In this document: in pieces, positions 16,304 to 52,229 of the stretch
Layout: every line of letters begins with the position of its first letter
Position numbering within the stretch: position 1 is the stretch's first letter
The notes under the pieces: model-generated
What the model was told of the DNA's origin: nothing
The model's input: only the letters and a program-made list of their open reading frames with translations
Databases searched by the model: none
Translations under genes and position numbers: made by a program
IMG/VR virus record: IMGVR_UViG_3300032285_001526
Span: 1-61,361 of that record
Strand: one strand, 5' to 3'
From: a virus
Lineage: Duplodnaviria; Caudoviricetes
Length of the DNA: 61,361 nucleotides

Positions 16304-16334
16304 TTGCTCGTATATTATCTCAAACGCCATTTAT

Positions 16335-20657: not shown

Positions 20658-20659
20658 GT

Positions 20660-23021: not shown

Positions 23022-25916
23022 CTATTCAGCGAAGTCTACATAGCCACCCACAGAGTCCACCATAGACTCCAAGGGCTTCACATAGGTCTCAGGCTTGCGC
23101 TCGGTCATCGTAGCAACATTCCCACCCCGCTGACGCAACAAATGCACTAACATTGACAAGCTGTCAAGTGCATCAGGTGAGCCTAGTCTAGTCCGCTTGA
23201 TGTAGTCCTTCTTTGACTCCACTCGCACCATCCCCTTGCCCTTCTGCATGTACCGTCTCGATGTAGCCTGCTTCGTCAGGTCGTCATTCCGAAAGCCCGG
23301 GCTGATCTTCAACCACTCAAACTCCAGATACTTGCTCAACGCAAACAGCAGCTCTGTCACCAGTCCGTTGTACAGCTCGTTTGCTTTCTGTGAGTCGTCT
23401 CCCATCACCGGGGTATCAGTCGCTGCCCAGCTATAGTTCAGACCCATCACCTCCGACCCGAACGTCGAGCACAGTACGTCGTGAATGCCTGCACCGTTCC
23501 CAGTACGGTCCACGCACAGCCAGTTGGGCGAGATCTTCATCTGCTTACAGAACCGCACGATAGCCGCTGCTTGCTCCATCGTAGCCGCCTTTGGAAACGG
23601 CATCTGACTGTCTAGTTGGAGCATTGTCCGGGGTGACTTGAATTCGTGGAACTTGCCAGCCCGGTCGGTCCAGCCGTCCGATAGCCCAAACCTGCCATAG
23701 CTACAGAGCACCTGATCGACGCCTTCCAGTGCTAAGTCGAACGCTGCCAGCGGCACCACAGGTCCAACGAACCGCACCATCCCCATTGCGTTGTCCATCA
23801 TAGCAGGCGAGATGATGCCCATCGAGATGCCCTCGTCAGGGAACCATCCCCGGGCCATCGTGCTAGCCTCTGCCGTCCGTCCCCGGCTCACATAGGCCAT
23901 ATAGCCCTCGTAGGTCTGTAAGCCTGCAAACACTACCTTCTGCTCCTTAACATTCTCGCAGTCGGCAGCGTCGAGCCTGATCACCTGCCAGCCGTCGCGG
24001 GAGGTCCAGTCTTTGTCGGCCTCCATCTCTACAGAGCCCCAGCCAAACTTAGGCTCGCACCGCTGCCCGAACTGACTGGTCCTGTCGCGAGGGTTGCTGG
24101 CTGCGAAGATCTTGATGCGCCCGGGCACCGAGCTGTCAGCAGCAGACAGGATGTTTTGCACGCCTGCCCAGACCCCATCCGGCACTTCCTCGGCTTCGTC
24201 TAGAATGACGTGCGTGCGGCTCACCTTACCCCAGCGTTCGTGCGTCGGGCCGAACCGGGGCGACGGGTGAAAGCCTCGCAGTGTCCCGTGGCCGCTCTCG
24301 CCTTTAGGGATGGCGACTAGGTGGATGCCTTGCTTGCTGTCTGTAGTGCTTTGAATGCTGGTCGCTAGATCCTCATCAAGTCCCCGGGGGCGCACCAGTG
24401 CAGTACGGTGGAACGTCTTGATGCTGGCGAAGATGTTCCGGGTAGCGTGAGCAGCCGTCAAGCTGACTACCTTGATACACGTCCAGTCCGGGTCGCGGAA
24501 CCAGTCGAGATAGAACCAAGCCGCCGCACCGTAGCTGTTGTGTGTCACAGTGAAGTCTCCCAGTAGGAACCTGTGATCCCCATCTAACGTGAAGCCATAG
24601 TACGCCTGCTCGCCTGCTGGCTCTATTGTCAGCTTCTGACCCAGACACGCACGCCTGCCTCGCTTTGTAGCTGGCTTAATGCGAGAAGGTATCACTGAAC
24701 AGTCACCGCTAATGTGTGCCCGATAGTAGTCTCCCCACACCCCATTGTTCACACACTGCTTGCGACACTTGGCCACAGTCACCGTAAGCCCAAGGCTTCT
24801 GGCAATGAATGCAATGCCGTCCGTTACATCCTTGTTCTTCTGAATAAACCCATACCCACTACCTGCCACATAGCCGTCCGTATCAATGAACCCGGCAAGC
24901 ACCTGTAACCTTACTTCCCTACTGTTCACCCTGTAACACTCAGGCACCTGCTTGCTCTTGCCCTGCAATGCAAACCCCATAATCGTTTGAAGCGTATGCT
25001 TCCGCACAATGTAGGTTGATGCCTTGTTGCCTGCTTTTGTTGCCACTCGCACTATGTAGCCATTAGCTGCCCAGTATGCTGTCCAAGCCTGTGCTATCGG
25101 TGCATCTTTTGTCGTAAGGTTCAAGGCATCTCCAGTGGCCGAGCCATCACCTAGCCACAAACCAAACACATATGGGTCAACCGGGCACTCTTGCGTCTCA
25201 AACTCAACGCCAGTGAACAACCCCTTGTAGTACTCTTTAAACTGCTCAGAAGATGCCAGATAGTCCTGTACAGACATGTCAATCACTCGTCCCCTAGTGT
25301 AGCCGCTCGACACCGTCTTACCGTCTCCGTTCAGCTTGTCGGCACAGCACACTAGCGTTAGGATGTGATCGTCTGTCACTGTGTACGCCTCTCCCCTGTC
25401 CTGCGTCACTCTATACATAGGTGACACGCCAGAGTGAGTCTGTAGCACTAGCCTAGGCTTGCTGTCTGGCCCCATCACACTATCGCCCATTTGCACCGCT
25501 TCAATGGCTCGCATAGATCCGTCAGCCATTATCACAGGTGTGCCCAGAGCTAGACACTTGCCCATCGAGCCAGCTCCTTGCACTAGCAGCTTGTCGGTAG
25601 CCATCAGCCCCTGCCAGACCCGGCGGCAGCTCTCTGGTCGCCAGTCAAACGCTCCCGGCCCCCATAGCAGGATCGCAGCAGCCTCGAACAGGTCTGCCTC
25701 TAACAGATGCGTGACGTACTCTCGGATGATGCGCTCTGCCAGTGCGTCGGACAGGGATAGCTGCCCAGCATGCTTAAGTGCTGCCCGGGCAATGAAGCCT
25801 GCTGCCCGGATCATGCCTCGCTCCTCGCAGGAGTCTGCCAGCTCCCGGGCTGCTAGGCACACCTTGATGGCCCGAGCCAGAGGCGGCGGGAGGGTTGCGA
25901 ATAGTTCGTCGCTCAT
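23022..25916 (-). CDS. terL: Terminase large subunit containing an intein
   Basis: Walker A GAGSMGK/S split by the intein, Walker B VILDEAE, ASNP, nuclease FDLA and SPDALD motifs. Confidence 0.92.
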   Translation of the reverse strand: MSDELFATLPPPLARAIKVCLAARELADSCEERGMIRAAGFIARAALKHAGQLSLSDALAERIIREYVTHLLEADLFEAAAILLWGPGAFDWRPESCRRVWQGLMATDKLLVQGAGSMGKCLALGTPVIMADGSMRAIEAVQMGDSVMGPDSKPRLVLQTHSGVSPMYRVTQDRGEAYTVTDDHILTLVCCADKLNGDGKTVSSGYTRGRVIDMSVQDYLASSEQFKEYYKGLFTGVEFETQECPVDPYVFGLWLGDGSATGDALNLTTKDAPIAQAWTAYWAANGYIVRVATKAGNKASTYIVRKHTLQTIMGFALQGKSKQVPECYRVNSREVRLQVLAGFIDTDGYVAGSGYGFIQKNKDVTDGIAFIARSLGLTVTVAKCRKQCVNNGVWGDYYRAHISGDCSVIPSRIKPATKRGRRACLGQKLTIEPAGEQAYYGFTLDGDHRFLLGDFTVTHNSYGAAAWFYLDWFRDPDWTCIKVVSLTAAHATRNIFASIKTFHRTALVRPRGLDEDLATSIQSTTDSKQGIHLVAIPKGESGHGTLRGFHPSPRFGPTHERWGKVSRTHVILDEAEEVPDGVWAGVQNILSAADSSVPGRIKIFAASNPRDRTSQFGQRCEPKFGWGSVEMEADKDWTSRDGWQVIRLDAADCENVKEQKVVFAGLQTYEGYMAYVSRGRTAEASTMARGWFPDEGISMGIISPAMMDNAMGMVRFVGPVVPLAAFDLALEGVDQVLCSYGRFGLSDGWTDRAGKFHEFKSPRTMLQLDSQMPFPKAATMEQAAAIVRFCKQMKISPNWLCVDRTGNGAGIHDVLCSTFGSEVMGLNYSWAATDTPVMGDDSQKANELYNGLVTELLFALSKYLEFEWLKISPGFRNDDLTKQATSRRYMQKGKGMVRVESKKDYIKRTRLGSPDALDSLSMLVHLLRQRGGNVATMTERKPETYVKPLESMVDSVGGYVDFAE
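24537..25556 (-). mobile_element. Intein (340 aa) with LAGLIDADG homing endonuclease
   Basis: Begins CLALGTPV, block B TDDH, GLWLGDG and LAGFIDTDG, ends VTHN followed by S. Confidence 0.95.
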
Positions 25917-36311: not shown

Positions 36312-37013
36312 TTAAAAGGATCTAGTCTGCCAAAGCTTCCGGGCTGCATTTAACTCAATCTGCGGCTTGCCGATACGCTCGTTGACTGCGTTGTGGAACC
36401 TGACGCTCCAGTCAAATAGGTTGAAGTAGTCAGGGGGATTCTGGTTGATCCACTGGTCGGCGTGATCCTTGCAGGGACAGGCATCGAACGGGAGGTCTCC
36501 GTACCAGTCTAGAAACCAATTGTGGACGGCTCTGCGCTTGCTGTCGTTGCGTAGGGCAAACAAGTGCAACTCTGCCCAGTGCCGGGCACCTTCGAGGAGG
36601 ATGCGGCTATTCCGTAACTCACCCCGCTTCTCAATGCGCTCTACCTCGTTTCCAACATCAAACACCCACTTGTCGTGAGCTTTCCAGTCAGTCCGGGTTG
36701 CCGTCGCGCACTCTTTCTCAATAGCCATCGCGATGACGTGTTGCTTGTGGTATGGGGCATTCTGGTCGTCCCCGGGCTCCTCAAGCAGCGGATTATCTGT
36801 ATCCCACTTGGTGACCATTTCATCAGTGATGCCGTCCCGCTTGCACAGGTACGCCTCAATCATCTCGTGAATGGCCACCAGCAGGACGGAAACATCGTTC
36901 CCGCCATACTCAGGCACAGTCAGCATTAGAGCCCCATCAGCAAGCCATTCCCAGTCGCCTGCGGTGGGATACCGCATTGCGCTGGGATCTACAGTCTTGA
37001 TCTCAATCCTCAT
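36312..37013 (-). CDS. HExxE metal-binding/peptidase-like domain fused to Erv1/Alr-like sulfhydryl oxidase
   Basis: N-term RY.T.GDW, AIHEMIE, EPGDD..APYH.QH; C-term W.ELH, LPFDACPCKDH, W...FHNAVNERIGKP. Confidence 0.8.
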   Translation of the reverse strand: MRIEIKTVDPSAMRYPTAGDWEWLADGALMLTVPEYGGNDVSVLLVAIHEMIEAYLCKRDGITDEMVTKWDTDNPLLEEPGDDQNAPYHKQHVIAMAIEKECATATRTDWKAHDKWVFDVGNEVERIEKRGELRNSRILLEGARHWAELHLFALRNDSKRRAVHNWFLDWYGDLPFDACPCKDHADQWINQNPPDYFNLFDWSVRFHNAVNERIGKPQIELNAARKLWQTRSF

Positions 37014-38274
37014 CGAAAACGCTCAAGTTTAGTTTATCCATTTTATCAATCTGTTCGCGCACCTGCTCAATTGCGCCAGTCTTACCTTCGAGGTAGTACC
37101 CCTCAACAAGCTCTGCGTTTTCTAGCGCATGATCGAAGGCTTCCTCAAGCGTATTCCCAAGCCCGACAACTGCGCCGATCTCTGGCAGACCGCAGCTCTG
37201 AGGGACTACGAAGTATCCCCGGTCGTCCTTGTAGATGTTGCGGAGTTTAACGTAATCGCGGATCTCCTCGGGGAAGCGCACTGGTTGCCAGTTCTTGTCG
37301 GCAAAGGACGAGTGCAGCATAATCTCAGCCCCGTACTTGGCAACAGGCTCAGGATCGATCACAATGCCGTTTGCCCCGGCCCAGATGCAGTCAGCAAGGT
37401 TCTTATACTGCTCCTGATAAAGCTCGTTAGGAGGCGAAGGAGCCCGGGCGCAGAAGTCAATCATGTAAGGCTCGTGATCGGCCCCGATACGGATCTCGGT
37501 GGAGAAAAAGCCCCGGTAGCCGTAAGCCTCGAACACAGGCTTCATCCGCTCGTTAAACCGGGTCAGCGGCTCAGGAAGGTCTTTGTAGTTCTTGAACACA
37601 CTAGCAAACCCGCAGTCCTTGATTTCGAGCCCAGAGATGAGCTTCGAGGGGAACTTGCCGTCGATGGTCCACGCATCCGTACCGAACTCAACTTTGTCTT
37701 CGAGAGCATCCTCCACCGTAAATTCGATGATATCCTTGAACCTGCCGAGCGACCACTCGACCTCGTCCAGTTTAGGCTCCACAAGGTCGTAGTTGATGGA
37801 ATGAAAAGTCTCAAACGTGCCCCTGTATTTGTCGGTTTTGACGTAGACATTGTCGTGCTCCCGTAGGTAATCGCGGAGAGCAGCCATCCCTTTGACGTGA
37901 GCGAACTTGCCCACTGGGAGCCCCAGTTCCTGAATAATGGCTTTCATGCCTTCGCGTTGAAGTTCAAGGCACTCCCCGGTGCGGGAGCCCCAGACCACCT
38001 TGCCTTGCTTGAGTAGGTGCTCTTGCTCGTATCCAAAATAGATGTCGGGGAAGCAGAATAGGTCCACCTCGTCGTAGTGAGGGCCATAAATTGAGTCTAC
38101 AAGCTCCAGCTCATCGATACCCATCCCGATCTTAGCAAGATTAAGCCGGGGGAATGCCGACTCCCAAGGGACGTAGTAATACACCTTCTTGTAAGTCTTT
38201 GCGAGCTTGATTGCCAGCTCGCAGAACAGCCCGTTGTCAACAACAAGGCACACTACGTCTTTAGGGTCTTTCAT
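37003..38274 (-). CDS. PurD-like ATP-grasp ligase
   Basis: VWGS...LE..R..K.....GLP, VYVK, GYRGFFSTE, IDFCAR, V.GLGNTLEEA; lacks the PurD GSGGREH motif. Confidence 0.8.
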   Translation of the reverse strand: MKDPKDVVCLVVDNGLFCELAIKLAKTYKKVYYYVPWESAFPRLNLAKIGMGIDELELVDSIYGPHYDEVDLFCFPDIYFGYEQEHLLKQGKVVWGSRTGECLELQREGMKAIIQELGLPVGKFAHVKGMAALRDYLREHDNVYVKTDKYRGTFETFHSINYDLVEPKLDEVEWSLGRFKDIIEFTVEDALEDKVEFGTDAWTIDGKFPSKLISGLEIKDCGFASVFKNYKDLPEPLTRFNERMKPVFEAYGYRGFFSTEIRIGADHEPYMIDFCARAPSPPNELYQEQYKNLADCIWAGANGIVIDPEPVAKYGAEIMLHSSFADKNWQPVRFPEEIRDYVKLRNIYKDDRGYFVVPQSCGLPEIGAVVGLGNTLEEAFDHALENAELVEGYYLEGKTGAIEQVREQIDKMDKLNLSVFDED

Positions 38275-38546
38275 TTGCAGTTCCAGCGTTTGAGTGATGC
38301 AGCCTTCCTAGTGGGGCGACCTTTCTCGTCTTTCATTGGCCCGGGCATACCACTCATACGGGCGCAGAATGACCGTTTGCGGCCTGCGTCAGCTTTAGTC
38401 TTAGGATGAGGCGCGGGAGCCTTGAGGTTGCTGCCTGTAGCCTTGTTGATTTTGGCGCGGCCTTTTGCGGTGAGGCCAGCTCCCCGGGATACAGGGAGCT
38501 TGTCGCCTTTGGCTACGGAAAGCTTTGGAGTTTTGGATGATTTCAT
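38271..38546 (-). CDS. Small basic conserved phage protein (DUF6321-like)
   Basis: GLTAKGRAK.N..TGSNLKAP...R.RSFCARM...LKRWNC. Confidence 0.8.
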   Translation of the reverse strand: MKSSKTPKLSVAKGDKLPVSRGAGLTAKGRAKINKATGSNLKAPAPHPKTKADAGRKRSFCARMSGMPGPMKDEKGRPTRKAASLKRWNCK

Positions 38547-38549
38547 TCG

Positions 38550-41500
38550 TTAATATTTTGAGCCAAAGGTAACTGCATCTAAGATTTGCTTTGCTAACTC
38601 TGGAGTGATGCCGAGAGTTCTGAGTTGGTCTGGCGTGGCTGTTCCCAACTCTTTGACAAAGGTATCAATTCCTCGGGCCAATAGTTTTCCACCTCCCATA
38701 GAATCCCCTGAAGCTGCTCCACTGTCGGAGACTTGTCCCCCAGCTTCGCCACCTCCTGCCCCACGAATTTGGCTAGAAGCTCGGCTTGCTGCTCTCCGAG
38801 AGCTTGCAACCTTTCCTCTGAGTATGCTTGATCCAGTCGGGTTGCTAACAGGTTTTGTTCTGACTCCTTCATGTTTCATGTAAACCAGATCAGGCATCTT
38901 TTGTCCATCCCAACCTTGAGCCGTCCATTGTGCTTTCAGCGCAGCTTCTTTTTTGTCCCGAGCTGCTTCCACTTGAGCTTTTTGCTCTGGAGTAGCGTTT
39001 TCTGGCATAGCAACAAGGAACTGCTTATCGTATGGAGAACGGTCGTATTCCACCCACCCGTGGCGAGCATACAACGAAGGCAACAACTCAGCGTTCCTTC
39101 CAGCAATATTCACCCCGTAACAGTCGAGGTTTGTAGCTCCCTCTTGAAGAGCCTTTGCCATCATAAGGTTTAACATCCCACCGAGCCCAGAGTTGTTCAT
39201 TACGCCAACCAGTTCTTTCCCACCATCTTTCCGAGCTTTTAACCCAAACCAAACATCGTTCTCTGGAAGCGTGTATAATGACATTTTTCCAGATTTGATA
39301 TCCTCTTTCAAAATGGACGGGTCGTATTGAGTCAGCGTCTCAGCAGCCTCATTCCGCTTGATTGCGTGCAAAAACTCAGTCATCCCTGCTGTCTTTTGCC
39401 CTGCAATTGCAGTCCAATTATCTGTGATGGCAGCAGCCATTGCGCGAGCAACAGCAGGATGCGTTTGCAGGTTTTGAGCCTCATTTATTGACCCCATCAC
39501 CTGCGGGTTAAGCTTTTGAGCAGTGATGCCCGTTGGGATTCGGCCTTGATAGGCGTAATCCGGGCGAATGTCATACCGTTCAGCGGTGCCTACTGCCTTT
39601 TCTGCAACTCTCCTTGCCTCCAACGCATCATCCATCTGCTTCTCTATGTCTGGAGATTTCTTTAGGATTTTGGAGATGGCCGAATTCAAAGATTTAATAG
39701 AAGCCTTGTATTCAGCAACTTTGGTTTTATCTGGAGTGTTTTTTGCAGACTCTCTCTTTAGTAGTTTTTCCGCTGCCGCAAGCCCTTCGCGAGCGGAAGT
39801 AAGCTCTTGATACTTGTCTCCAATCTTCAGTTGCAAATTGGAAAGAATACCTTCTTTAGCCGCTAAATCTCCCTGCGCTTCTTGAATCTTTGCTGGCTTG
39901 TTTTCAGCAACGTATTCTTTGATCTGCCTAATTGGATCAGGCATTCCAACATCAAACGGCACTGGAGTCTGAAAGTGAGCAATCATCTTGCCCGGAAGCA
40001 CTGTGTTGTAAGTAAGGTGCTCTGGAACTCCAAGATCAGCAGCCGACAAGTCATCTCGCAGTTTCCACTTTGTCTCTCCAGTATCGACTTCTTTTGCGTC
40101 TTTCCCCCGGCCTTGCTTTTCCATCACAGGCACCTGTTTAGCCATCCGATCAATGTCGATTAAAAGCATCGAAAGAAGGTTTCCTGAGTCAATTCCGTGG
40201 TAAGAAGCGTCTCTTGTTTCTCTGAGAGTGCGCTCAGAAATTGGAACCCCCATTTCTTGAGACTCTTTCTTTGTGAGAGCTTTTACAATTGCAGCCCGAG
40301 ATTCAAAGGATAGCCCAGAAAAATACTCGTCCATCTGAGGGCTATTCAAATCAGGGAATTCAGACAGGCTTACCTTTTCACCCTTGATGTTGCGAATTTC
40401 ATTTGCCAATGCATTTGCTGCCGCAGGACTAACTTGTCCAGAATTAACAGCATTAGCAACTTCCTTCATAAAAACCCGGCCAAAGTTTTTATTTGCCTGA
40501 TGGGCAGTTTGAGACATTGAGAACGGAGAAACAATTGCCCAATGTTTGCCGTTTTTGTCTTTCCAAATTGACCCCGTCTTAACAAGGTCACCAAGGATTG
40601 ATTCAACCCCTTCCCGAGTTGATGACCAAGCCGCAGTCATATTGTTGCCGTCGTAATTCATCACTGGATACGCTGGACCACCCTGCATCTCGACTCCTTT
40701 GTATTGCCCGCCTCCTCCGAGAAGGTCTGCCATAATTGGCAAAAACGGCTTGTCTGCGTATTCGTCTGGAATCTTGCTAGGAATACCCTTTGCCTTAGCC
40801 ATTGTGTTGGCTGGCACAATACTCTGAACAAACTGCCGTTGAGCTTGTTTTTGTTCTTCAGTTACAGGCTCTTTTGTAAGGTCGTTTTCTTTGCCAGCAA
40901 CAGTTTTTGATGGCATGAACCGAGCCTGCCCACCAGAAACAGATTCAGACATTTCTGGAGTGATGTTGACCTTCCAGATTTGCTCCTGTCCTTTGCTTAA
41001 AGCATTTCGAGCGTCGTCAGCTTCAATGTAAGACTTAAATGGGCCAACCCCGGGAACCCTTTTGCCAAACGATCCTTCGTTGAGCCAGTAGTCAGTTCCA
41101 TCAAACCCTACCGCAAGCCCTTTCATCCCCTTGTCAGGGTTTGGAATTCCGCCTTTCTCGACTTTTGCACCCCACTGCTTCACATACTTTCCAATCTCTT
41201 TTGGCAGGATTGTGTCGTAGAAGCCAATCATGCCTTCGCCGCCGAGCTTTAAGTCAACGCCCTTTAATGCATGAACCTGTTTGCGAGACCCGATTGTGTA
41301 CGGCTCTGTGGCAAGTAGCTTTTCAGCAACTTCTTTGCCTACATAGTCAGCAATTTTCTCCCTTGGAACAGCTTGGTTAAAAACTTCATCTCCACTGAGA
41401 TCGAACGCTAACAATGTCTGAGTTAATGGCAAGTATTCAACTGCACTGACTTTATTACTCAAATCATACCGTTCAGCCTGCGCCTCGCCCCCAGTCCAAC

Positions 41501-44500
41501 CAACCCACTGTTTGCCGTCAGCGACAGCTTTCTGGAGTGCGTGCTTAAATAACTGGAGAGGCCAATCTTTTCGGAACGGAGCGTCTGCAATACCTTCCTT
41601 GGATAGGCTCGCTGCTTTTTGAATCACTTCCTCTTCAGTCCTCCCGCCGTATGTTCCAAGATCTCTTCCGTTTGAAGAAAGCACAATCCAGCCAGATGCG
41701 TCTGGGTTTTCTGAATCGTACTTAAAGTTGTACGCTTTCCATCCTGTTGTGTCTGGAAGTCTTTCGTAACCTTTTTCTCGCGCCTCCTTATGCAGGTCAG
41801 ACTGCAACTCTTCAATCAGCCTGCCGTTACCAAAGTCTGCCGTCCGCATATGGGCGACATAGTTTGAAACGTCAGGGAAGTGGCTTGAGGTGTAGTCTAC
41901 TCCGGGCATGCGGAGTACGATTTCTTCGTAGTTTGTGCCTCCGGGAAGCGTGTATTGGGAGTATTGAGCGTCCTCTACGTCACCCTCGCTAATTGTAGTT
42001 TCATCTTCAGCAAGGCTGCGAAAGTAATCATTTAAATCTTTGCGAGCTGCTTCTTCTGTTTTGTAATACTCTTCAGGCCTAAAAATTGTTAATCCATAAC
42101 TGTTTTTTTGTTCTCGGGTTACATGATCATAGTTTTGATCAATAATAAACCATCCTTTAGGCGTATAATCTTCATCGTTTGATTCATCTAAAATAACATC
42201 ATAACCAGCGTAATCATTTAGCATTTCAATGTGATTTTCGATGCCGTTTTCTCTGGCTTTTTCAGCTTCTTCTTTTGAAGAAAAATGTTCAGTATTTCCG
42301 TCAGAGTATGTGACAAAATACTCTTTGCCGTCTTTCATCGTCTGCGTCTCAAATTTCGCAGCGTAGCTGTCCTTCAAGAACCGCTTAACGTCGTCCTTTG
42401 TCACAAACCCCTTCTCTGCCTGCATCGAGTCAATAAACTGATTGATGCCACTCCATTTCATTTCGTCGGGCTTCACGCCGCTGCCCTTCTGTGGGTCTAG
42501 AATGCCCTTAAGCTGCTCTGCGCTGGCTCGATTAGGCATCTTGTCCAACAGAACCCTACCTGCTTTGCTGTAGAACCCGGGGGCGACCATTGTTGGGTCT
42601 TCCTCACGCTCAGGCATGAATCGAATGCCAGCCTGCTCTTGTTGTGGAATGCCGCCTTTTAGCTTGTCTATCTCAGACCCGATATAAGCAGAGTCATCAG
42701 CCTTCTCAGCGGGAATAATGCGAGTTTCAATGCCGTTTCTTTCCAGTGTGGAAAGCACTTCCGGGTCAACATTGTCCGGCACAATGGCTCCCTTAAACTC
42801 ATTAAGCTGCACGATGCGTTGTGGCTTTGCTTCAAAGTATTTCACTGGAGAGGCAGACATTGCATCCGCAGCGGAAACAGCTTGTTTCACGACCTCGCTA
42901 GGCACATTAGTGAACCCCATTTTACTCAGGGTCTGCTTCATCCTAGATTCCCCGCCTGCTCCGCTTCTGTAGTAGGCACCCAGAGCTGCCATTGATTCGT
43001 CCAATGCATCCCACGTTGCGCCTTTGTAATAAGGCACCATTGCGTCCCTGTAATCTCGCAGCACCTCAGAGACCTTATTGCGAGCTTCGTTGACTTCTGC
43101 CTCAGAACGAATACCCCAAGGTGCCTCGGCAGTATTGCGCATTTCCTGCAAAGAGCCGAAACGCTTTGCCATTTGAGCAGCAGTGAGTCCTGTGGATTGG
43201 GTCATCGATTTTTCGACGCCAGCAATCTTTCCGCTCGTCATTACCCGGGCAATATTTTCAAGCGTGTACGGTTCCCACTTTCCAGCAACACGAATGCGCG
43301 GAGCTTCGTACATGCCTTCGATAGTGTTCTCGACCCACTTGTAAAAATCAGACTCTTTGCCAGCCAACTTTTGATCCAAAGCTTTCTGCGTTTCAGCCGC
43401 ATCAATTTCTGTTTTTCCGTAGTTGCGAACATCAGCTTCAAGCCTTGATATTGCGCCAACAGTCGCCTGCCCGTCTTCGCTTACAAACCTGTTTCCAATC
43501 CGGGTCGCTTTACCCTTCATTTCCTCTGGATAAACCTCATCAAACCCGGCTCTAATTGCATCACCGAGTGCCTTGCGCCCCTCAATGTCATTGTAGTTGA
43601 CGTCCTGAATAGAGTTTTTTGACATCCACTCTTTCATTGGAGCAGTGTCCAATATCCCAAGGTCTTGAGACACAGTGCGCATCACTGGCTCAGGCGCAGC
43701 ATCCCCGAGGTACGTTGCTTTGGCTACGTTTGACTTTTTCAGCTTGTTAACAGCTTCCTCTGGGTTGGGTCTGTTGACCGCATTGTCCCAAATGATGTCA
43801 GTAACATTGTCCCCGTATGAACTGCTGAACTTGCCTTGGGCAGGCTTGAACAAATCAATGGTCTGCTGTGCTTTCTTTGTTTTGACCCTTGGATACTCAG
43901 GCTTTGGAAACCGCTGCGTGTAAGCGTCTCCGCTGTATACGGGATTGGTTTTAGGATCTACTAGATCGCGTCCGCCAACCAAAGTGATGTTTCCAAACCC
44001 TTGAATTCCAGTGCCTGCCTTAACCACTGCAACGGAAGGCACAGCAAGCCCTCCCATCTTGTCAGCGAACAACAATGCATCGTCTGAAATCTTGTGAATT
44101 GCAGACATCTTGTACGGCTGAGATGTCTCCGTTTTTGGAAAACTGCCTTCAGCGTGATGGTACTCCTCATCAGCAGGGGCAGGCATGAACCGCACTTGCG
44201 CTGCCTCTGGCTGAACAGTTGCCTTAATCTCTCCAGTGCCATTCGGGTCGTACTCAGCAGACACAGCCTGCAAGCCTTTTAGGATGCCTGCGCCAAATCC
44301 CACTGGCTCCTTAAGCCGAGGCTCACGCTCGCGCATAGCCTCTTCTTTGGCGGGCATCAGGTTGTACAGAGCCTTGCCGTAGTTCACCCGGAATGGGGCA
44401 TCGCTGCTCCTTTCGAGGTCGTGAAAACGATCAACCCGGTACGAACGAATCAACGTGTTAGGGTCAGAGCTTTCCTCATCCAGTTTCTCAGCTTTAGTCA

Positions 44501-47500
44501 GCCTACGAGGCGGACGCTTCATCGTGCTCCGGGCAGGGTTTGCCAGCAATGATTCAGGCTCTGTCTTCCTAAAGATGTTCAGGAAGTCGTTAACGCGATT
44601 CTTCTTTGCGATGGCAATGTTTGAATCGGAATCCAGCCCAGTCTCCCCGGGGAGCCCAGCAGGAGCACCTTCACGAGGCTTCCAGTTGTCCAGCACTTTA
44701 CGGACATCTGTCATAAATGCATCCCCATCGCCTTGCCACAGGTTCAGCAGTTCTGGAGTGTCACGCTGCCAACGACGCAGCTTTTCACGCATGCCCGTTT
44801 TCGAGAACATGTTGAAAAGGATGTTTCCGTCTTTCGACATTTTCATGCCGAGCGGAACAAAGTCTACAATCTTTGGCGCAAACGATTTGTAGCGTCCGTA
44901 GCGGTCCATTGCTTGACCGTATAGGCCAATCATCCCTTCGCCTTCATCTCGCACCAGTAGGTCGTTAAATTCGAGGATTCGACGCTTCAGCCCATACGGG
45001 ATAATCGTCTCTGGTAACCGCTTGATTGCTTTGACCTGCTCTGGAGACAAAATGCCACCAAATGATAAGCCGTCAGCAGAAGTGGCGGACATACGGCCCG
45101 GGTACTCCTTGTCTGGAGCTGATTCTAATGCCTCGCGGATGATCCGAGCCCGCTCGCGCCCCAGTGCCTTTGCCTGATCTGGAGTCAACGCTGCCAGTCC
45201 CCCGGAAGCATCACGCTTGATTCGGGAGGTGATCTTTAACTTTCCACCTTTTGGCAACTGAACATCATGCAACTCGGGCGGGACAGTGCCGTACCCGGAA
45301 GTTTGCCTCAACTCAGAGTCGCCAGTGTCTGTCGTGGAATGCTCAAACGTACCCTCCATTGCGCCCGGGTCAGTAATGACGTGAGACGATACGACATTCC
45401 CGTTTTCATCAACAACAGTCGCAACCTTTTCAGTGGCAAAGAACCCATCTCCAAACTGCTTTGCTACAGCCTCATTTGCCTTGAGTTGCGTCTCGGTGAT
45501 CGGAGCGTGCGGGATAATCTCAGCCGCATTAATATCTCCGTTCAGTTCAGCAACCGCTTTGAGTGCCTTGCGAGTTGCATCAACCTGATCTTTAGAGAAG
45601 GTAACGCCGACAACAGACGAGTCCCAAGGTTTTGTTTCAGTAAGCCCAAAAGCGTCTCGAATTGACCTGACCGTTTTTTGGTTCTTGTTCTTAACCGTTG
45701 CCCAATCAACAAGCGGAGCCAACCAAGGCTTTGGCGATTCCCCGAGCTTAATCCCGCCTTGCGCCCCTCCCTGAATCAATTCGGCCATTACCTCGGCTTT
45801 CATATAAGAAGCCGTTTTAGCGGGGTCTATGTCGTTTGTTTTAACGTCCCAAAGCCCGGTAAGCTTTGCAAGGTGCTCCCAGCCTCCCTGAACCCCTTTT
45901 GCGTAAACATTCTTGAATTTGTTTACAAGGTCTTCGGTAGATAGGATGCCAGCGTCTCCACTGATAAGGTTGCCTCTTTCATCAAACCGTTGATCACCAA
46001 ACAAGTCTTTGATGGTCTGTGCGTTTGCCTCTCTGAATTCTTTGGAGTTCCAAAAAGAGTGCCCGGCTTCGTGCCCTACAGCATTGAGCACAGATTCCCC
46101 AGTGCCCATCCTGCGTTTAACAGCATCAATATTGACGTTCAGACGCTCTTTGTAGGGAGTGTATAAGTCGATGGTCTTGCCACTTGAAAGACGATGCTTG
46201 CCACCGTTCTCTGCCTCAAAAGCAATCTGTCCAGAGTTGGCCAACAGGTGATTAACCACCTCAACTTTTTCAAGGTCTGTGAGCCCCTTATCCTTGTTGT
46301 TTTCAAGCACCTCATTGACTAGTTGAGGCGTAGTGGTCATCCGCAGCTCAACATTCCTATTGGTAGTAGAGCCGTTGAGAGCAGTCATCAAATCAGCGAG
46401 CCCAATCCGAATCTGATCTGCATACATCTGCCGGGTCTCTGCATTTGCCTTCTCGGCATTCTGAAGCATTGCCCTGCGTGTTTTAGCAATCCGCAGTGTG
46501 TAGTCAGCATCCTCTTTTGCTGCTGCAATTTTGTTTTCAGGCTCACCAGTGTTAACTGCGTTGACGAGTTCTTGCTGCGCTAAAGCATGTTCTCCCACTG
46601 CATTTTCAGTCAGAGCTTTAAGAGACTGGACGTAATTGTCCCAGTTTGCAAATTCAGTGACATGCTGCTTTGTTGCTCCATCAAGGCCATCAAACCATTT
46701 TGCCGCACCAGCCCGTTGACGCTTTTGATTGGCTTCGTATCGAGCGTGAGAGACCCCAGACATATTGCCGAGCACCTCGCCGCCAACGTGAAAAAACACG
46801 CCTTGCCCCATCAGGTCAGCAATCTCTTCCGGGTTCTTGTTTTCGAGGATACCAACAGCCGCTGCCAGCGTAGCTCCGTGGACTCCGCCCCGGGCCATCT
46901 CAACAGTATTCTGAGCCATCCAGTCTAGAACTTTTGCAGCAGGAATAGATTTATCCGCCAGCCACTTTTGAGCAGCCGGGGTCATCCCAAGCTCACCAGC
47001 TTTTTCAGTCGCAGCTTTGGCCCCAGCTAGAAATCTGCCTTCAGCACCAGCAGCAAGCCTCCCACCAGCTAGAGCTGACTCCATCAGTCTCGGGGTCTGT
47101 AACGCTGCACTGCCTAACTTTAGTGTGGTTGCTCCGAGCAATCCTTCACCAAGCTTAGAAGCTGGCACACCAATGAATTCAGGAATCTTTTCAAGTGCGC
47201 CTTTAGTCTTTTCTGTGCCGACTTCAATAGCGTTTGCCAACCCTCCAAATCCTCGTTCAAACACCCCGGGCTTCTGAGAGTCCTTGATCTTTTGTAGGTC
47301 TTGCTCGAAAGCTTTTGCGACCGCTGCTCTGTCAATTTCAGCAAGCTGCGCCTCGGTCTTTCCAATTCTACTAGCAGCTTTTGCTCCTTGGCCTAATGCT
47401 TGAAATGCTTTGCCGTAAACATCAAATGGATTCAACCCAGCCCTGCCGTAGCTAAGAGCTTCGGTGATATCTGCCTCGGGAACCATCTGCGAAGCTTCCT

Positions 47501-48662
47501 TCCGAAAGTTGCTGATGAGTTGCTGAGAGTCGCGCAGATCGTCTATCTGTTTCTCTTTTAGAGCAGCCTCACGATCTCCACCGAATCGCTCAAGACGATC
47601 ATCGACAGAAGGCGACCAAACAGAGGTCAGGCCGTATGCCATCTTTTCTGCCAGCTCCCGAGTGTTGGGATCTTCAAGAATCAGGCGAGTAAATACGTTA
47701 GGATCAGTCTTTTTCCAGCCTTCGTAGTATTCATCCGCACGTTGCCTGCGCAAGTATCGGTCAAAAGCTTCGTCGTGAGAGATTCCTCCCAGTTCTTTTG
47801 GAATCTGCTGTTGAATCCAGTCGGTAACAGACAACCCGTTGGCTGCTGCATTCGCCGCAGTTTTTGCAACGGATTCAAACGTCTCCGCCGCACTGGTAGC
47901 AGGAGCTAAAAAGTTCTTGCCCCATTGAGCCCACTGCTCCCGATTTGTAAGGTCTTCTGGACCCTGTAAAAACGCAGGAATAGTCTTTGCCACCCCAGAA
48001 GCAAAACGCACCCCGGACTCAGCAAGCCCTTTTCCAATTCCAACACCAACATTCCACGCTTCCTTGCCGTAATTAGTGTCTTCGTGTTTTTGATCGAAAA
48101 CAGCCCTGTGCTGCTCGTCCGTTTTTGGAAACCAACTAGGAAACTGCTTAATCTCTTCCGGGTCTGTAACCTTTGCCGCTTCAGTTTTGATCTCGGGCGT
48201 GATTTGACTAGGAGACAGGTTGTGAAGCTGACTTGCAATGTACGACTGCACAGGCTCTGTGTGATCAATGTAGAGCCCTTTGGCAGTGTCCTCAATTGAA
48301 CTCAAAGCGGACTGTTTAGCAGCCTCGATTGTCGGAAAATCAGTCTGCGCTGCCTGCTTTGGTTGCTCTTCTTTTGGCAGAAATTCTTTGCCAATTTTTG
48401 AGGCTTTTTCCTGCCTTTTAACAAACTGCTCAAAGTCTTTTGGAAGCTCTCCAGTTTCTTCCTGTGGTTTAGCTTCTGGAAATGGCTCTGCTTTTTGTCC
48501 TTGCCCAATGGAAGGAGCCATAAAGCTAGAACCCATAGGCCCCATCCCGGCAAACATTCCCGCTTCCTCTGTTTTTACAGATTCAGGAATGTACTTTGCA
48601 GCCTCTTTAGCTGCTTTTGATTGTCTCGCCGCCAGTGCTTCTATTTCGTCGAGGTCACTCAT
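38550..48662 (-). CDS. Giant polyvalent internal virion/ejection protein (3370 aa)
   Basis: Follows the ejection genes; HEAGH zincin motif, two large polyvalent-type modules, C-terminal GNAT-like domain, RFMP linkers. Confidence 0.8.
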   Translation of the reverse strand: MSDLDEIEALAARQSKAAKEAAKYIPESVKTEEAGMFAGMGPMGSSFMAPSIGQGQKAEPFPEAKPQEETGELPKDFEQFVKRQEKASKIGKEFLPKEEQPKQAAQTDFPTIEAAKQSALSSIEDTAKGLYIDHTEPVQSYIASQLHNLSPSQITPEIKTEAAKVTDPEEIKQFPSWFPKTDEQHRAVFDQKHEDTNYGKEAWNVGVGIGKGLAESGVRFASGVAKTIPAFLQGPEDLTNREQWAQWGKNFLAPATSAAETFESVAKTAANAAANGLSVTDWIQQQIPKELGGISHDEAFDRYLRRQRADEYYEGWKKTDPNVFTRLILEDPNTRELAEKMAYGLTSVWSPSVDDRLERFGGDREAALKEKQIDDLRDSQQLISNFRKEASQMVPEADITEALSYGRAGLNPFDVYGKAFQALGQGAKAASRIGKTEAQLAEIDRAAVAKAFEQDLQKIKDSQKPGVFERGFGGLANAIEVGTEKTKGALEKIPEFIGVPASKLGEGLLGATTLKLGSAALQTPRLMESALAGGRLAAGAEGRFLAGAKAATEKAGELGMTPAAQKWLADKSIPAAKVLDWMAQNTVEMARGGVHGATLAAAVGILENKNPEEIADLMGQGVFFHVGGEVLGNMSGVSHARYEANQKRQRAGAAKWFDGLDGATKQHVTEFANWDNYVQSLKALTENAVGEHALAQQELVNAVNTGEPENKIAAAKEDADYTLRIAKTRRAMLQNAEKANAETRQMYADQIRIGLADLMTALNGSTTNRNVELRMTTTPQLVNEVLENNKDKGLTDLEKVEVVNHLLANSGQIAFEAENGGKHRLSSGKTIDLYTPYKERLNVNIDAVKRRMGTGESVLNAVGHEAGHSFWNSKEFREANAQTIKDLFGDQRFDERGNLISGDAGILSTEDLVNKFKNVYAKGVQGGWEHLAKLTGLWDVKTNDIDPAKTASYMKAEVMAELIQGGAQGGIKLGESPKPWLAPLVDWATVKNKNQKTVRSIRDAFGLTETKPWDSSVVGVTFSKDQVDATRKALKAVAELNGDINAAEIIPHAPITETQLKANEAVAKQFGDGFFATEKVATVVDENGNVVSSHVITDPGAMEGTFEHSTTDTGDSELRQTSGYGTVPPELHDVQLPKGGKLKITSRIKRDASGGLAALTPDQAKALGRERARIIREALESAPDKEYPGRMSATSADGLSFGGILSPEQVKAIKRLPETIIPYGLKRRILEFNDLLVRDEGEGMIGLYGQAMDRYGRYKSFAPKIVDFVPLGMKMSKDGNILFNMFSKTGMREKLRRWQRDTPELLNLWQGDGDAFMTDVRKVLDNWKPREGAPAGLPGETGLDSDSNIAIAKKNRVNDFLNIFRKTEPESLLANPARSTMKRPPRRLTKAEKLDEESSDPNTLIRSYRVDRFHDLERSSDAPFRVNYGKALYNLMPAKEEAMREREPRLKEPVGFGAGILKGLQAVSAEYDPNGTGEIKATVQPEAAQVRFMPAPADEEYHHAEGSFPKTETSQPYKMSAIHKISDDALLFADKMGGLAVPSVAVVKAGTGIQGFGNITLVGGRDLVDPKTNPVYSGDAYTQRFPKPEYPRVKTKKAQQTIDLFKPAQGKFSSSYGDNVTDIIWDNAVNRPNPEEAVNKLKKSNVAKATYLGDAAPEPVMRTVSQDLGILDTAPMKEWMSKNSIQDVNYNDIEGRKALGDAIRAGFDEVYPEEMKGKATRIGNRFVSEDGQATVGAISRLEADVRNYGKTEIDAAETQKALDQKLAGKESDFYKWVENTIEGMYEAPRIRVAGKWEPYTLENIARVMTSGKIAGVEKSMTQSTGLTAAQMAKRFGSLQEMRNTAEAPWGIRSEAEVNEARNKVSEVLRDYRDAMVPYYKGATWDALDESMAALGAYYRSGAGGESRMKQTLSKMGFTNVPSEVVKQAVSAADAMSASPVKYFEAKPQRIVQLNEFKGAIVPDNVDPEVLSTLERNGIETRIIPAEKADDSAYIGSEIDKLKGGIPQQEQAGIRFMPEREEDPTMVAPGFYSKAGRVLLDKMPNRASAEQLKGILDPQKGSGVKPDEMKWSGINQFIDSMQAEKGFVTKDDVKRFLKDSYAAKFETQTMKDGKEYFVTYSDGNTEHFSSKEEAEKARENGIENHIEMLNDYAGYDVILDESNDEDYTPKGWFIIDQNYDHVTREQKNSYGLTIFRPEEYYKTEEAARKDLNDYFRSLAEDETTISEGDVEDAQYSQYTLPGGTNYEEIVLRMPGVDYTSSHFPDVSNYVAHMRTADFGNGRLIEELQSDLHKEAREKGYERLPDTTGWKAYNFKYDSENPDASGWIVLSSNGRDLGTYGGRTEEEVIQKAASLSKEGIADAPFRKDWPLQLFKHALQKAVADGKQWVGWTGGEAQAERYDLSNKVSAVEYLPLTQTLLAFDLSGDEVFNQAVPREKIADYVGKEVAEKLLATEPYTIGSRKQVHALKGVDLKLGGEGMIGFYDTILPKEIGKYVKQWGAKVEKGGIPNPDKGMKGLAVGFDGTDYWLNEGSFGKRVPGVGPFKSYIEADDARNALSKGQEQIWKVNITPEMSESVSGGQARFMPSKTVAGKENDLTKEPVTEEQKQAQRQFVQSIVPANTMAKAKGIPSKIPDEYADKPFLPIMADLLGGGGQYKGVEMQGGPAYPVMNYDGNNMTAAWSSTREGVESILGDLVKTGSIWKDKNGKHWAIVSPFSMSQTAHQANKNFGRVFMKEVANAVNSGQVSPAAANALANEIRNIKGEKVSLSEFPDLNSPQMDEYFSGLSFESRAAIVKALTKKESQEMGVPISERTLRETRDASYHGIDSGNLLSMLLIDIDRMAKQVPVMEKQGRGKDAKEVDTGETKWKLRDDLSAADLGVPEHLTYNTVLPGKMIAHFQTPVPFDVGMPDPIRQIKEYVAENKPAKIQEAQGDLAAKEGILSNLQLKIGDKYQELTSAREGLAAAEKLLKRESAKNTPDKTKVAEYKASIKSLNSAISKILKKSPDIEKQMDDALEARRVAEKAVGTAERYDIRPDYAYQGRIPTGITAQKLNPQVMGSINEAQNLQTHPAVARAMAAAITDNWTAIAGQKTAGMTEFLHAIKRNEAAETLTQYDPSILKEDIKSGKMSLYTLPENDVWFGLKARKDGGKELVGVMNNSGLGGMLNLMMAKALQEGATNLDCYGVNIAGRNAELLPSLYARHGWVEYDRSPYDKQFLVAMPENATPEQKAQVEAARDKKEAALKAQWTAQGWDGQKMPDLVYMKHEGVRTKPVSNPTGSSILRGKVASSRRAASRASSQIRGAGGGEAGGQVSDSGAASGDSMGGGKLLARGIDTFVKELGTATPDQLRTLGITPELAKQILDAVTFGSKY

Positions 48663-50566
48663 TGTGCAGGTGCGGTATTAGCTTCTTGACCAGTGGGGAA
48701 CCCAACTCCGCCACCAACAAATCCTTGTCTTTTTGTGGAGAAATCTTTTTTGCCTAAAATCAATGAACCTGTGTATCTTTCTCTTTTTAAACGAGTTGAT
48801 AAAGATTCTGATTCTTGAGAAATTTCATTCAACTGTTCTTTAATAAGAGCCAAAGATTCTGTGTCGTTTTCTGCCAATGCTTTTTTAGCCTCTTGAAGAA
48901 GTTTCTTTGTTGCCGCATCATTTTCTGAAATTTTTTTAGCGGCATCAGTTACTAGAATAATGTTATCAACATACGGATGGGGCAAATGAACTTCATTTTT
49001 CTGCCCTGAATCCATCATTTTTTCCCTCCCTTGAAGCAGAACATCATTTGCAGCAGCAGCTTGTTCGTTGTGCATTTCAGCCATTGTGCGCATCATTTGG
49101 TCACGCTGCCTGTCGCTCAAAAGTGCTCCAGATAATGGCTTGTCCTTTATGAGATTTAATTTATCTACAAAGTTTTTAGCTTCAATCATCAGCTTAACTT
49201 CGCCTTCAGTAATTCTACCTCCAGAAGTTGCCCGAGCAAAAGTATTAATCAAATCTACGTCTGCTGCTCCAGCTGCGCTTGGATTACGTTTAACATTATC
49301 GTAAGCAGCCATAAATGAACGCATCATTGCTCTAGTTCCATTTTGGCCTTCATAATTTTTGAAAGCTGGATGAGTTACAATTGCTTGTCCTTCTGAACGA
49401 GTTGCCTGCTGAACCTTTTGTTTTTCATTGTCTGAAAGCTTGCGCTCATCCAATGCAGCTTTGTCTGCTTCTTCTTTAATGTTAACGTAATTTATCTTAT
49501 ACCCCTCTTTTGTTGAATCAGCTCCAACAGCCCTCCACTCAGGATTTGTTTCATTGAATTTCTTCATAAACTCTTCAATGACATTTGAATCGTAAACTCC
49601 GCCTTCTCCTGATTTATCAACGTAAAACACGCGATCCATTCGTGCAGGCGTTGGCTGTTTTGTTTCAGGTTGTATCTCAGGTTGCTTTACTAAAGCACCA
49701 ATTCTTTGACCTTCAGTGCGTTTAGGCTCAATAGGCGCAGCAAAATCAGGAGCACCGTACTGTGGTAAAGAAGCAAGTACTGCGGTTTGTTGTTGAGGAG
49801 TGATGGCTCTGGAAACATCAGAACCAAGTGGCACTTCTGGCATTTGAGCCGTTGGATAAACAGGCAACGCCAAAGAGAGAGCGGCAGGTTTATTAAAATC
49901 AAATGCAACTTTTTTTGGGGCAATCGAGGAGATTGAGATAGGACTTTCGCGATCTACAGCAAGAGCTGGGGCTGCGGAGTTAAACAATCCCATATCAGCA
50001 GGGCCAGAAGGCTCAGAAGGCAATTGATCGCCTTGTTGAGCAACTCGCTCTTGCGCCATCCTGCGTGCCGTTTTAAGCCCGGGAGTCTCTGCTCCAGTTG
50101 CTTCCTGTTCAGCTACAGGTTGAGTTCCCTGAAGTGTACCTCTAACAACTTGCGAAAGTTGGCTTATGTCTTTTGATCCTTTTCCAGAAGATTTAGCCTG
50201 TAGCGTTGCCATCACTTCACTGTGACGCAAATCATCTTTTCTCTGCTGCTCTTTTAACTTTGCTTCATCAGCCAAAAGCTTCTTGTTTGCAAGCTCTTCT
50301 CTTGCAGCTTCTCTTTCAGCCAGAAACGCATCTTTTTTATCCTGACGTTTTTGCTGATAAGAAGCCGTAATCCCGGCACCAATCGCACTTAAAGCTCTGT
50401 CAATTCCCTGAGCAATATACGGCTTAGTCTCGGCAACCTGAAACGCAGGCATAGCTTGAAACTGCATAGGCGCACCAAACGTCAACGGACGCAATCCTGC
50501 GAGTGCGTCGGTCGGGATCTGCGGTGCTACAGTTGCAAATGGAATGCCTGATTCAAGTCCTGCCAT
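48659..50566 (-). CDS. Putative ejection (internal core) protein
   Basis: Helical/coiled-coil, Pro-rich middle; position before the giant protein. Confidence 0.6.
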   Translation of the reverse strand: MAGLESGIPFATVAPQIPTDALAGLRPLTFGAPMQFQAMPAFQVAETKPYIAQGIDRALSAIGAGITASYQQKRQDKKDAFLAEREAAREELANKKLLADEAKLKEQQRKDDLRHSEVMATLQAKSSGKGSKDISQLSQVVRGTLQGTQPVAEQEATGAETPGLKTARRMAQERVAQQGDQLPSEPSGPADMGLFNSAAPALAVDRESPISISSIAPKKVAFDFNKPAALSLALPVYPTAQMPEVPLGSDVSRAITPQQQTAVLASLPQYGAPDFAAPIEPKRTEGQRIGALVKQPEIQPETKQPTPARMDRVFYVDKSGEGGVYDSNVIEEFMKKFNETNPEWRAVGADSTKEGYKINYVNIKEEADKAALDERKLSDNEKQKVQQATRSEGQAIVTHPAFKNYEGQNGTRAMMRSFMAAYDNVKRNPSAAGAADVDLINTFARATSGGRITEGEVKLMIEAKNFVDKLNLIKDKPLSGALLSDRQRDQMMRTMAEMHNEQAAAANDVLLQGREKMMDSGQKNEVHLPHPYVDNIILVTDAAKKISENDAATKKLLQEAKKALAENDTESLALIKEQLNEISQESESLSTRLKRERYTGSLILGKKDFSTKRQGFVGGGVGFPTGQEANTAPAQ

Positions 50567-50567
50567 A

Positions 50568-50822
50568 TTACGTTCCTCCGAAAGTTGCTTGAGCCGCTCC
50601 GGGGTTCTTTGCTTGATTAGGCGCAGCGGCAGAGCTTAGAGCACCACCACCCATAACCGCACCAGATGGAGGCTGTGCCCCGGTCTGAGTCGGCTGCATA
50701 GTAGGCGCAGGGGCTGCGTTAATCGTCGCCCCAGTCGTTGCAGGAGTAGGCTGACCGTTAGGGCGCACGATCTGCCCTAATTGTCCTCCGATAGGTTGTC
50801 CTAGTTGTCCTGAGCCTCCCAT
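50568..50822 (-). CDS. Small Gly/Gln/Pro-rich virion-like protein
   Basis: MGGSGQ start, ends TFGGT. Confidence 0.55.
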   Translation of the reverse strand: MGGSGQLGQPIGGQLGQIVRPNGQPTPATTGATINAAPAPTMQPTQTGAQPPSGAVMGGGALSSAAAPNQAKNPGAAQATFGGT

Positions 50823-50823
50823 T

Positions 50824-51285: not shown

Positions 51286-51297
51286 AATAGTGTGTAG

Positions 51298-52227: not shown

Positions 52228-52229
52228 AA

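Follow-up and report, generated by a model that had tools for sequence, protein, structure and literature searches.

How phages obtain disulfides in proteins that are made in the reducing cytoplasm is an open question, and it is raised by a gene of the IMG/VR record IMGVR_UViG_3300032285_001526, a complete viral genome with direct terminal repeats, all 61,361 bp of which we analysed and refer to as the window. The gene (Table 1) encodes a 233-amino-acid (aa) protein that joins, within a single open reading frame (ORF), an N-terminal domain with an HExxE motif (N-domain) to a C-terminal Erv/ALR domain; this fusion had been described in an initial annotation, and both parts carry the motifs named there. 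The same annotation took the genome to be that of a tailed phage, which the terminal repeats, a terminase large subunit (PHROG hits) and a 1266-aa collagen-like tail fibre bear out, and to which a 1170-aa protein with a baseplate-like segment can be added; the phage is of a lake type, and nearly all genes of the window lie on the minus strand. In the reading that we prefer, and hold with even confidence, the 233-aa protein is a cytoplasmic, homodimeric, flavin adenine dinucleotide (FAD)-dependent thiol oxidase from a large phage-carried clade of Erv/ALR domains with a CxC pair, and its role is accessory rather than one in core virion assembly.

An Erv/ALR domain with a CxC pair

The C-terminal ~98 aa constitute a genuine Erv/ALR domain. 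With the Pfam model Evr1_Alr (PF04777), residues 146-228 score 31.9 bits, above the curated cut-off of 27.6 (E 1.8e-7; 33.9 bits in a six-frame search), homologues of the protein carry precomputed PF04777 annotation, and a phmmer search of PDB sequences places pB119L of African swine fever virus (ASFV; 3gwl_A) closest (E 4.4e-6), followed by ALR and Erv1 chains; PHROGs returned only rows at E>0.08. An AlphaFold2 model built on 27 homologues (mean predicted local distance difference test (pLDDT) score 90.9) was superposed by VIA-align on 3gwl_B at Z 12.9 (root-mean-square deviation (rmsd) 2.4 Å over 93 residues, 28% identity) and on yeast Erv1, Erv2 and mimivirus R596 at Z 11.4-12.1. Foldseek likewise ranked 3gwl_A first, with a template-modelling (TM) score of 0.74 on the target, but at E 2.2e-3 and with zero matches at E<=0.001; ALR (1oqc) gave a TM score of 0.68 on the target. 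The match to the family goes beyond chance.

Every motif that had been named for the last ~90 aa is present in the translation (W146-x-x-L-H150; L174-P175; C179-P180-C181-x-x-H184; W202-x4-H207-N208-x-V210-N211-x3-G215-K216-P217). Helix 1 bears W146...H150 and helix 4 bears H207-N208-x-V210-N211...K216; the corresponding W...H and H-N-x-x-N...K we take to be the FAD-contact residues of the Erv family. Residues W146, H150, C179, C181, H207, N208, V210, N211 and K216 are identical in the 27 fused forms and in ten divergent members of the phage clade. In all, 75 homologues of the 233-aa protein were found, the full-length forms of which span 207-236 aa and share an MRIEIK start. Because its N-terminal sequence, as read from the translation, lacks a hydrophobic stretch, the protein appears not to be exported.

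PMC10598087 gives C-x-x-C as the signature of the Erv family, whose members it assigns to some double-stranded DNA viruses, to eukaryotes and to a few bacteria and archaea. The 233-aa protein departs from this signature, in that C179-P-C181 stands where the family has its flavin-adjacent CxxC; the initial annotation had pointed to this difference, and the alignments agree, in that HMMER pairs C181 with the second cysteine of the pB119L CxxC, and the CxxC and CxC forms of the phage clade differ by a one-residue gap with the remainder of the domain in register. The CPC motif is kept in 27/27 aligned fused homologues and in all 58 fused database proteins that have the HN motif (two of 60, which do not have it, were left out). 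A relative is encoded by 298 IMG/VR stretches; among the 79 kept loci that were examined for the motif, 76 have CxC (CPC in 58; CDC, CSC or CQC in 18) and three have CxxC (CPKC, CPVC). A profile made from ten divergent members (A4) recovered 545 short proteins of 52-207 aa, and the best 120 of these all have CxC, with D (64), S (24), E (10), N (8), P (4), Q (4), G (4) or A (2) as the middle residue; a word-based search with residues 136-233 had given zero candidates for such short stand-alone relatives. Since both cysteines are conserved and the residue between them varies, both cysteines are under selection and the middle position is free, which is the pattern expected of a redox pair. Judged from these alignments, CxC is the signature of the whole phage-borne Erv clade, and the 545 short relatives and 298 viral stretches show that genes for Erv-type enzymes are present in tailed phages, across hundreds of sequence clusters.

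A collection of 50,697 deposited phage records gave no phage match to three tblastn queries (the whole protein, a CxxC-type relative and a CDC-type relative), their single match being the record of a giant virus (Mollivirus); megablast with 15 kb of the window gave no match, and in the literature we found no Erv-type enzyme described in a bacteriophage, with the proviso that supplementary files might list phage homologues. More distant CxC-Erv genes are also found on tailed-phage contigs, where one lies downstream of a tape-measure gene and another beside a tail-fibre-like gene.

A separate observation concerns a more distant 61.6-kb phage contig (L058:67-10276), in which a 3222-aa giant ORF is immediately followed by an Erv gene of the CPC type whose N-terminal part differs. 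The placement behind a giant gene thus recurs.

Two copies of the 233-aa protein, modelled together with FAD, are predicted to form a symmetric homodimer with an ipSAE of 0.89 (0.89-0.90 in three runs) versus 0.00 for the best control, with 100% contact agreement and a partner pLDDT of 94. The pass mark applied to such predictions is reached by 20/30 proteins solved as pairs and by 1/23 solved as single chains, and the FAD, like other small molecules in these complexes, is unscored. The predicted interface comprises the first two helices of the Erv domain (143-173), strand 1-7 and the back face of helix 40-59, such that the N-domain would extend it; H49, E50, E53 and C57 are absent from the interface list and hence free in the predicted dimer.

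ASFV pB119L (3GWL), a compact sulfhydryl oxidase and the best match in both sequence and fold, is a single small helical-bundle domain that shares LP...C..H and HNxVN with the phage protein; unlike the latter it has CxxC rather than CPC, lacks an N-terminal domain and comes from a virus of eukaryotes. The cellular enzymes (yeast Erv1, 3W4Y/4E0I, and Erv2, 1JR8; mammalian ALR, 1OQC) and R596 (3GWN/3TD7) have the same fold and flavin-binding motifs, and the first two helices of the Erv domain, which the predicted phage homodimer uses, would be a further likeness. Erv1, Erv2 and ALR combine a flavin-proximal CxxC with a distal shuttle disulfide on a flexible arm, whereas the phage protein has CxC and no second cysteine pair. 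The two cysteines of a CxC, with one intervening residue, form a strained, oxidising and redox-active disulfide, as in the CPC redox motif of Mia40, which is exactly that of C179-P-C181, and in the C-terminal CGC shuttle motif of Erv2. In Mia40 and Erv2, however, the CxC serves as a relay at a distance from the flavin, and in the phage protein it takes the flavin-adjacent position of the Erv core. Mimivirus R596 also carries an extra, uncharacterised domain (PMC3509050), at the opposite end from that of the phage protein.

An accessory gene among close relatives

The Erv gene lies outside the head/tail gene block, between a gene for a giant virion protein and the recombination genes, and borders a block of small genes that are poorly conserved; on its 3' side small unknown genes are followed by genes for recombination and replication (DUF2800 nuclease, RecT-like, RusA, DUF1376/DnaT). 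Its distribution was followed through the putative capsid protein, which has 159 relatives in IMG/VR. The best 80 of these, at 82-96% identity, were examined, and 22 of them are on near-complete contigs of >=57 kb (capsids 82-95% identical). Eight of these 22 genomes have the Erv gene, three have an N-domain gene only and 11 have neither. In the 14 genomes without Erv, which are 91-100% complete (one record being at 91%), there were zero PF04777 matches, with all four positive controls recovered, and the full-length profile found the N-domain-only gene in three and nothing in 11. On a capsid tree of 29 rows, which traces one gene in a mosaic genome, the presence or absence of Erv needs six changes, five of them forced by well-supported branches, indicating that the gene was repeatedly lost or gained, at least five to six times. 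Given that close relatives do without it, assembly of the virus particle probably does not require the gene, which in this lineage is accessory and stands outside any core pathway of virion assembly.

We return to our preferred reading, that of an accessory cytoplasmic thiol oxidase. A substrate dithiol would reduce the strained C179-C181 disulfide, from which electrons would pass to the bound FAD and then to oxygen, giving hydrogen peroxide, or to another acceptor. Because the gene is accessory, the capsid and tail are less likely substrates than small thiols or a narrow set of proteins encoded by the phage or its host. Several points speak against such an enzyme. The CxxC that defines the Erv family is missing, and we know of no Erv enzyme with CxC beside the flavin; there is no second, shuttle cysteine pair, C57 being the sole conserved cysteine outside the CPC (C102 is not conserved); solved Erv dimers exist, so that the dimer prediction may partly reflect memory of them; the HExxE motif of the N-domain is lost in some fused forms (P0030, P0051, P0053-55, P0059, P0060), and the likeness of this domain to zincins is weak (Z<=5.5). 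It is, moreover, unclear what a phage would gain from an oxidase that releases hydrogen peroxide and has the reducing environment of the bacterial cytoplasm to contend with. A virion protein that is itself accessory can, finally, still be served by an accessory gene. The prevalence of CxC makes it testable whether an Erv core works with an 11-membered disulfide ring, and at which redox potential.

The N-domain and its putative ATP-grasp neighbour

Made up of three strands and four helices, the N-domain (residues 1-130) represents a large, so far uncharacterised family of viral proteins. Its profile matches 1841 cluster representatives at E<=1e-3, mostly stand-alone proteins of 120-135 aa. The nearest clusters in a protein atlas are 'hypothetical protein' clusters of Uroviricota, and the nearest named one is Peptidase_M78 (score 0.79). 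No Pfam or PHROG model covers the domain, a weak match to Fe_dep_repr_C in some family members (E 0.0017-0.026) stays below the cut-off, a tblastn search with a stand-alone member (P0065) gave no match, and a cluster look-up of five N-domain proteins from NCBI returned no names. (An HNH endonuclease occurs at the N-terminus of three of 41 sampled family members, in L159- and L221-type loci, as in P0159 and P0221.)

The N-domain contains R14-Y15-x-T17-x-G19-D20-W21, H49-E50-M-I-E53, E79-P80-G81-D82 and A86-P87-Y88-H89-x-x-H92. Across 41 diverse family members there is no variation at H49, E53, D71, G81, P87, Y88, H92 or E99, and next to none at E50 and C57. In the model of the domain alone (pLDDT 93.7), H49, E53 and C57 probably follow one another at one-helical-turn spacing on the same face of helix 40-59. 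A fold search gave weak rows only, all at Z<=5.5 and thus in the noise range of the tool, and many of them are small zincins (selecase, abylysin, PprI/IrrE, SprT, CapP, BlaR1); the best zincin rows, 4qhf_A at Z 5.3 (rmsd 3.0 Å, 82 residues) and 8sln_A and 4jiu_A at Z 4.9, lie below the range in which the tool is trusted, and Foldseek found zero matches at E<=0.001. At Z 5.5 the top row is Fel d 1, a helical protein that was set aside as unrelated. Like selecase (4QHF), abylysin (4JIU), ImmA/IrrE, SprT and CapP, the N-domain has a three-stranded sheet followed by a helix with H-E-x-x-[ligand], and further conserved His and Glu residues on later helices; unlike them, it has HExxE in place of HExxH, with E53 invariant in 41/41, it reaches at most Z 5.3-5.5 and matches no Pfam model, and some fused forms have dropped the motif. 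These comparisons do not establish the N-domain as a zincin. They point to a separate module of zincin-like topology that probably holds a metal site, with HExxE...H where zincins have HExxH...E; H49, E53 and H92 are the probable candidates for that site, with E50, C57, D71 and E99 nearby. Several fused members have lost the HE and the middle segment, so the N-domain can survive as a structural part of the fusion.

Immediately upstream of the Erv gene, a 423-aa gene ends such that the Erv ATG sits 11 nt inside it. Its product has no Pfam, PHROG or PDB sequence match; in the atlas, its neighbours are viral ATP-grasp clusters named 'biotin carboxylase family' and GARS_A (PurD-like), a placement that serves as no more than a lead. 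Of 53 fused loci, 30 have a homologue immediately 5' of the fused gene (for five of the remaining 23 the upstream sequence is too short to judge), and an ATP-grasp gene adjoins the N-domain gene in 42 of 80 N-domain loci. The gene also adjoins N-domain-only genes (L181-L183, L222-224, L230, L238, L240, L241), and seven of the 42 loci are distant stand-alone N-domain loci (L251, L260, L264-L266, L272, L278), at which the ATP-grasp gene is on either side, at 29-46% identity. Since the adjacency is also found at N-domain-only loci, the conserved link is that between the N-domain and the ATP-grasp gene, which form an undescribed two-gene set in divergent phages; one branch has added the Erv domain to it. 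With about 1800 clusters and no family model, the N-domain and its link to a viral ATP-grasp enzyme amount to a second uncharacterised system.

On the far side of the ATP-grasp gene lies a gene for DUF6321, a basic 91-aa protein whose two cysteines, C61 and C90, are conserved in 3/3 homologues. It is encoded in six of ten Erv-bearing and in none of 14 Erv-less genomes (Fisher p 0.0016, ignoring relatedness), and in one locus (L036) it is directly upstream of the Erv gene. DUF6321 is therefore a candidate substrate or partner of Erv, and the Erv enzyme may be connected to all three of its neighbours, the ATP-grasp, N-domain and DUF6321 genes.

These linkages allow an alternative in which Erv, together with an ATP-grasp ligase, the N-domain and in some cases DUF6321, belongs to a small modification cassette that makes or matures one specific product; Erv may, for example, oxidise the two cysteines of DUF6321 or a thiol-bearing ligation product. 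The 11-nt overlap, an adjacency of ATP-grasp and N-domain genes that is kept across divergent phages in both gene orders, the retention of the ATP-grasp neighbour by N-domain-only genes and the company of DUF6321 all fit such a cassette. We nonetheless consider it unlikely, as 23 of the 53 fused loci show no upstream ATP-grasp homologue (five of them having too short a sequence to judge), DUF6321 is absent from four of ten Erv-bearing genomes and its association does not correct for relatedness, and neither partner accompanies CxC-Erv forms of the L056 and L062 types in their loci. A bolder version, to which we give a similarly small chance, would have tailed phages possess a large, undescribed Erv branch of their own, possibly hyper-oxidising by virtue of a strained CxC at the flavin, that imposes disulfides against the thioredoxin and glutathione systems of the bacterial cytoplasm; in the lineage of the window it would perform the last step of an ATP-grasp/N-domain/Erv cassette that assembles a specific peptide or small protein, such as DUF6321, and matures it by oxidation.

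Virion cysteines and the remaining alternatives

The initial annotation suggested a different use of the enzyme, namely that the phage Erv oxidises the cysteines of capsid, fibres and tail during assembly, in a cytoplasmic pathway like that of poxviruses. The poxvirus E10R - A2.5L - G4L pathway, described in PMC10598087 and PMC13576161, is a virus-encoded, Erv-type oxidase pathway in the reducing cytoplasm, to which the phage protein is alike in type and setting; the analogy with the Erv enzymes of large DNA viruses (PMC10598087) and the virion disulfides that exist in some phages (PMC13576161) speak for the proposal. As had been claimed, many structural proteins of the window do carry cysteines: six in the putative capsid, eight in a 201-aa protein whose gene neighbours that of the putative portal, and three, at the same spacing, in each of two fibre N-termini. 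In other phage types, furthermore, Erv-like genes adjoin tail genes (that of L074 is downstream of a tape-measure gene, that of L060 beside a tail-fibre-like one).

These cysteines do not track the Erv gene, however. The six capsid cysteines are present in 80 of 81 sequences, including those of 11/11 genomes with neither gene and 3/3 with the N-domain only. When five complete Erv-bearing genomes were compared with five Erv-less ones, the 201-aa protein had all eight of its cysteines in all ten, the 227-aa fibre-like protein likewise had C21, C65 and C86 in each, and seven of the ten cysteines of a 712-aa protein were kept in all five Erv-less genomes, with two of the others varying among Erv-bearing genomes as well; the 801-, 712- and 334-aa proteins showed cysteine differences in single genomes or subsets of both groups. 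C188 of the 801-aa protein alone tracks Erv, being Cys in 5/5 Erv-bearing and Thr or Ala in 5/5 Erv-less genomes, and this residue counts in favour of the virion proposal. The proposed test of co-occurrence between Erv genes and conserved virion cysteines is thus negative, and the inference of virion disulfides made by Erv is not supported. An oxidase of the poxvirus type would be conserved together with the cysteine-bearing virion proteins, and in this clade it is present in eight of 22 genomes. Unlike poxviruses, the window and 23 relatives gave 0 matches to thioredoxin or glutaredoxin (PF00085 and PF00462, the only families searched) in 24/24 genomes. Taken with the repeated loss or gain of Erv among near-identical capsids and the position of the gene outside the head/tail block, these results make the virion pathway improbable, even if oxidation of some phage protein by the enzyme is possible. 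The enzyme being dispensable among phages with near-identical, cysteine-bearing capsids, the giant-virus model is not simply transferable to phages.

The 201-aa protein has no Pfam match, and its eight cysteines are invariant in ten relatives at 47-78% identity; its two CxxC pairs suggest zinc sites. The 227-aa protein and the collagen-like fibre have N-terminal cysteine triplets of identical spacing, which fits a paralogous attachment domain.

It is quite improbable that the Erv fold has been kept for something other than thiol oxidation, with the CxC binding a metal, the flavin serving another reaction or the domain acting as a dimerisation scaffold. The lack of a canonical CxxC and of a shuttle disulfide, and a predicted dimer interface that runs through the Erv domain, would agree with such a change of function, but both cysteines and the flavin-contact motifs are invariant over several hundred divergent sequences in which the middle residue is free, and CxxC and CxC forms coexist in one clade. 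Very improbable, finally, is a host-directed redox weapon or counter-defence that drains host thioredoxin or glutathione, or inactivates a cysteine-dependent host protein, early in infection, although genes for host interaction typically show such a patchy, accessory distribution, the Erv gene borders the block of small and poorly conserved genes and a CxC disulfide is expected to be strongly oxidising.

Table 1 Features of the window discussed in the text
Feature	Position	Strand	Remarks
Fused gene, whole ORF	36312..37013	-	233 aa + stop; N-domain fused to Erv/ALR domain
N-domain, residues 1-130	36624..37013	-	Three strands and four helices; uncharacterised viral family
H49-E50-M-I-E53 motif on helix 40-59	36855..36869	-	H49 and E53 invariant in 41 family members
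Erv/ALR domain of the FAD-binding helical-bundle type, residues 136-233	36315..36608	-	PF04777 score; Z 12.9 to 3gwl_B
C179-P180-C181, presumed redox-active pair in place of CxxC	36471..36479	-	Invariant in 27/27
H207-N208-A-V210-N211, flavin-binding helix motif of the Erv family	36381..36395	-	Invariant in 27 fused homologues and across the phage clade
423-aa gene, ATP-grasp-like (PurD / biotin-carboxylase-like)	37003..38274	-	Atlas placement; stop overlaps Erv start by 11 nt
DUF6321, 91-aa basic protein	38271..38546	-	PF19846 at 84.1 bits; C61 and C90
Giant 3370-aa protein	38550..48662	-	PBECR5 nuclease domain, residues 1520-1661
Five genes upstream of the giant gene	48659..52616	-	
1266-aa collagen-like fibre	1807..5607	-	N-terminal Cys triplet C11/C55/C76
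227-aa fibre-like protein	5655..6338	-	N-terminal Cys triplet C21/C65/C86
Putative capsid	7775..8989		6 Cys
201-aa protein next to putative portal gene	15725..16330	-	C67, C74, C127/C130, C140/C143, C169, C197
Five overlapping or adjacent small ORFs	19608..21234	-	103-106 aa
Terminase large subunit with intein	23022..25916	-	964 aa; Hint 71.1 bits; Hom_end and LAGLIDADG domains

Two roles considered for the giant protein were rejected: that of an N4-like virion RNA polymerase, given that it has no PHROG hit and a PBECR5 nuclease domain only, and that of a substrate of Erv, because it has one cysteine in 3370 aa. The giant gene and the five genes upstream of it together encode two cysteines in 4684 aa, as against 1.59% cysteine in the remaining proteome, and its homologues in ten relatives have 0-2 cysteines in 2383-4271 aa, with or without Erv. 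The giant protein is possibly an ejected, polyvalent internal protein that is kept free of cross-linkable residues.

Two minor observations concern other genes. The five small ORFs listed in Table 1 have few or no homologues in ten relatives. The terminase large subunit contains an intein, and its cysteines at 121-424 align to gaps in nine of ten relatives, such that the insert is present in only one of them.

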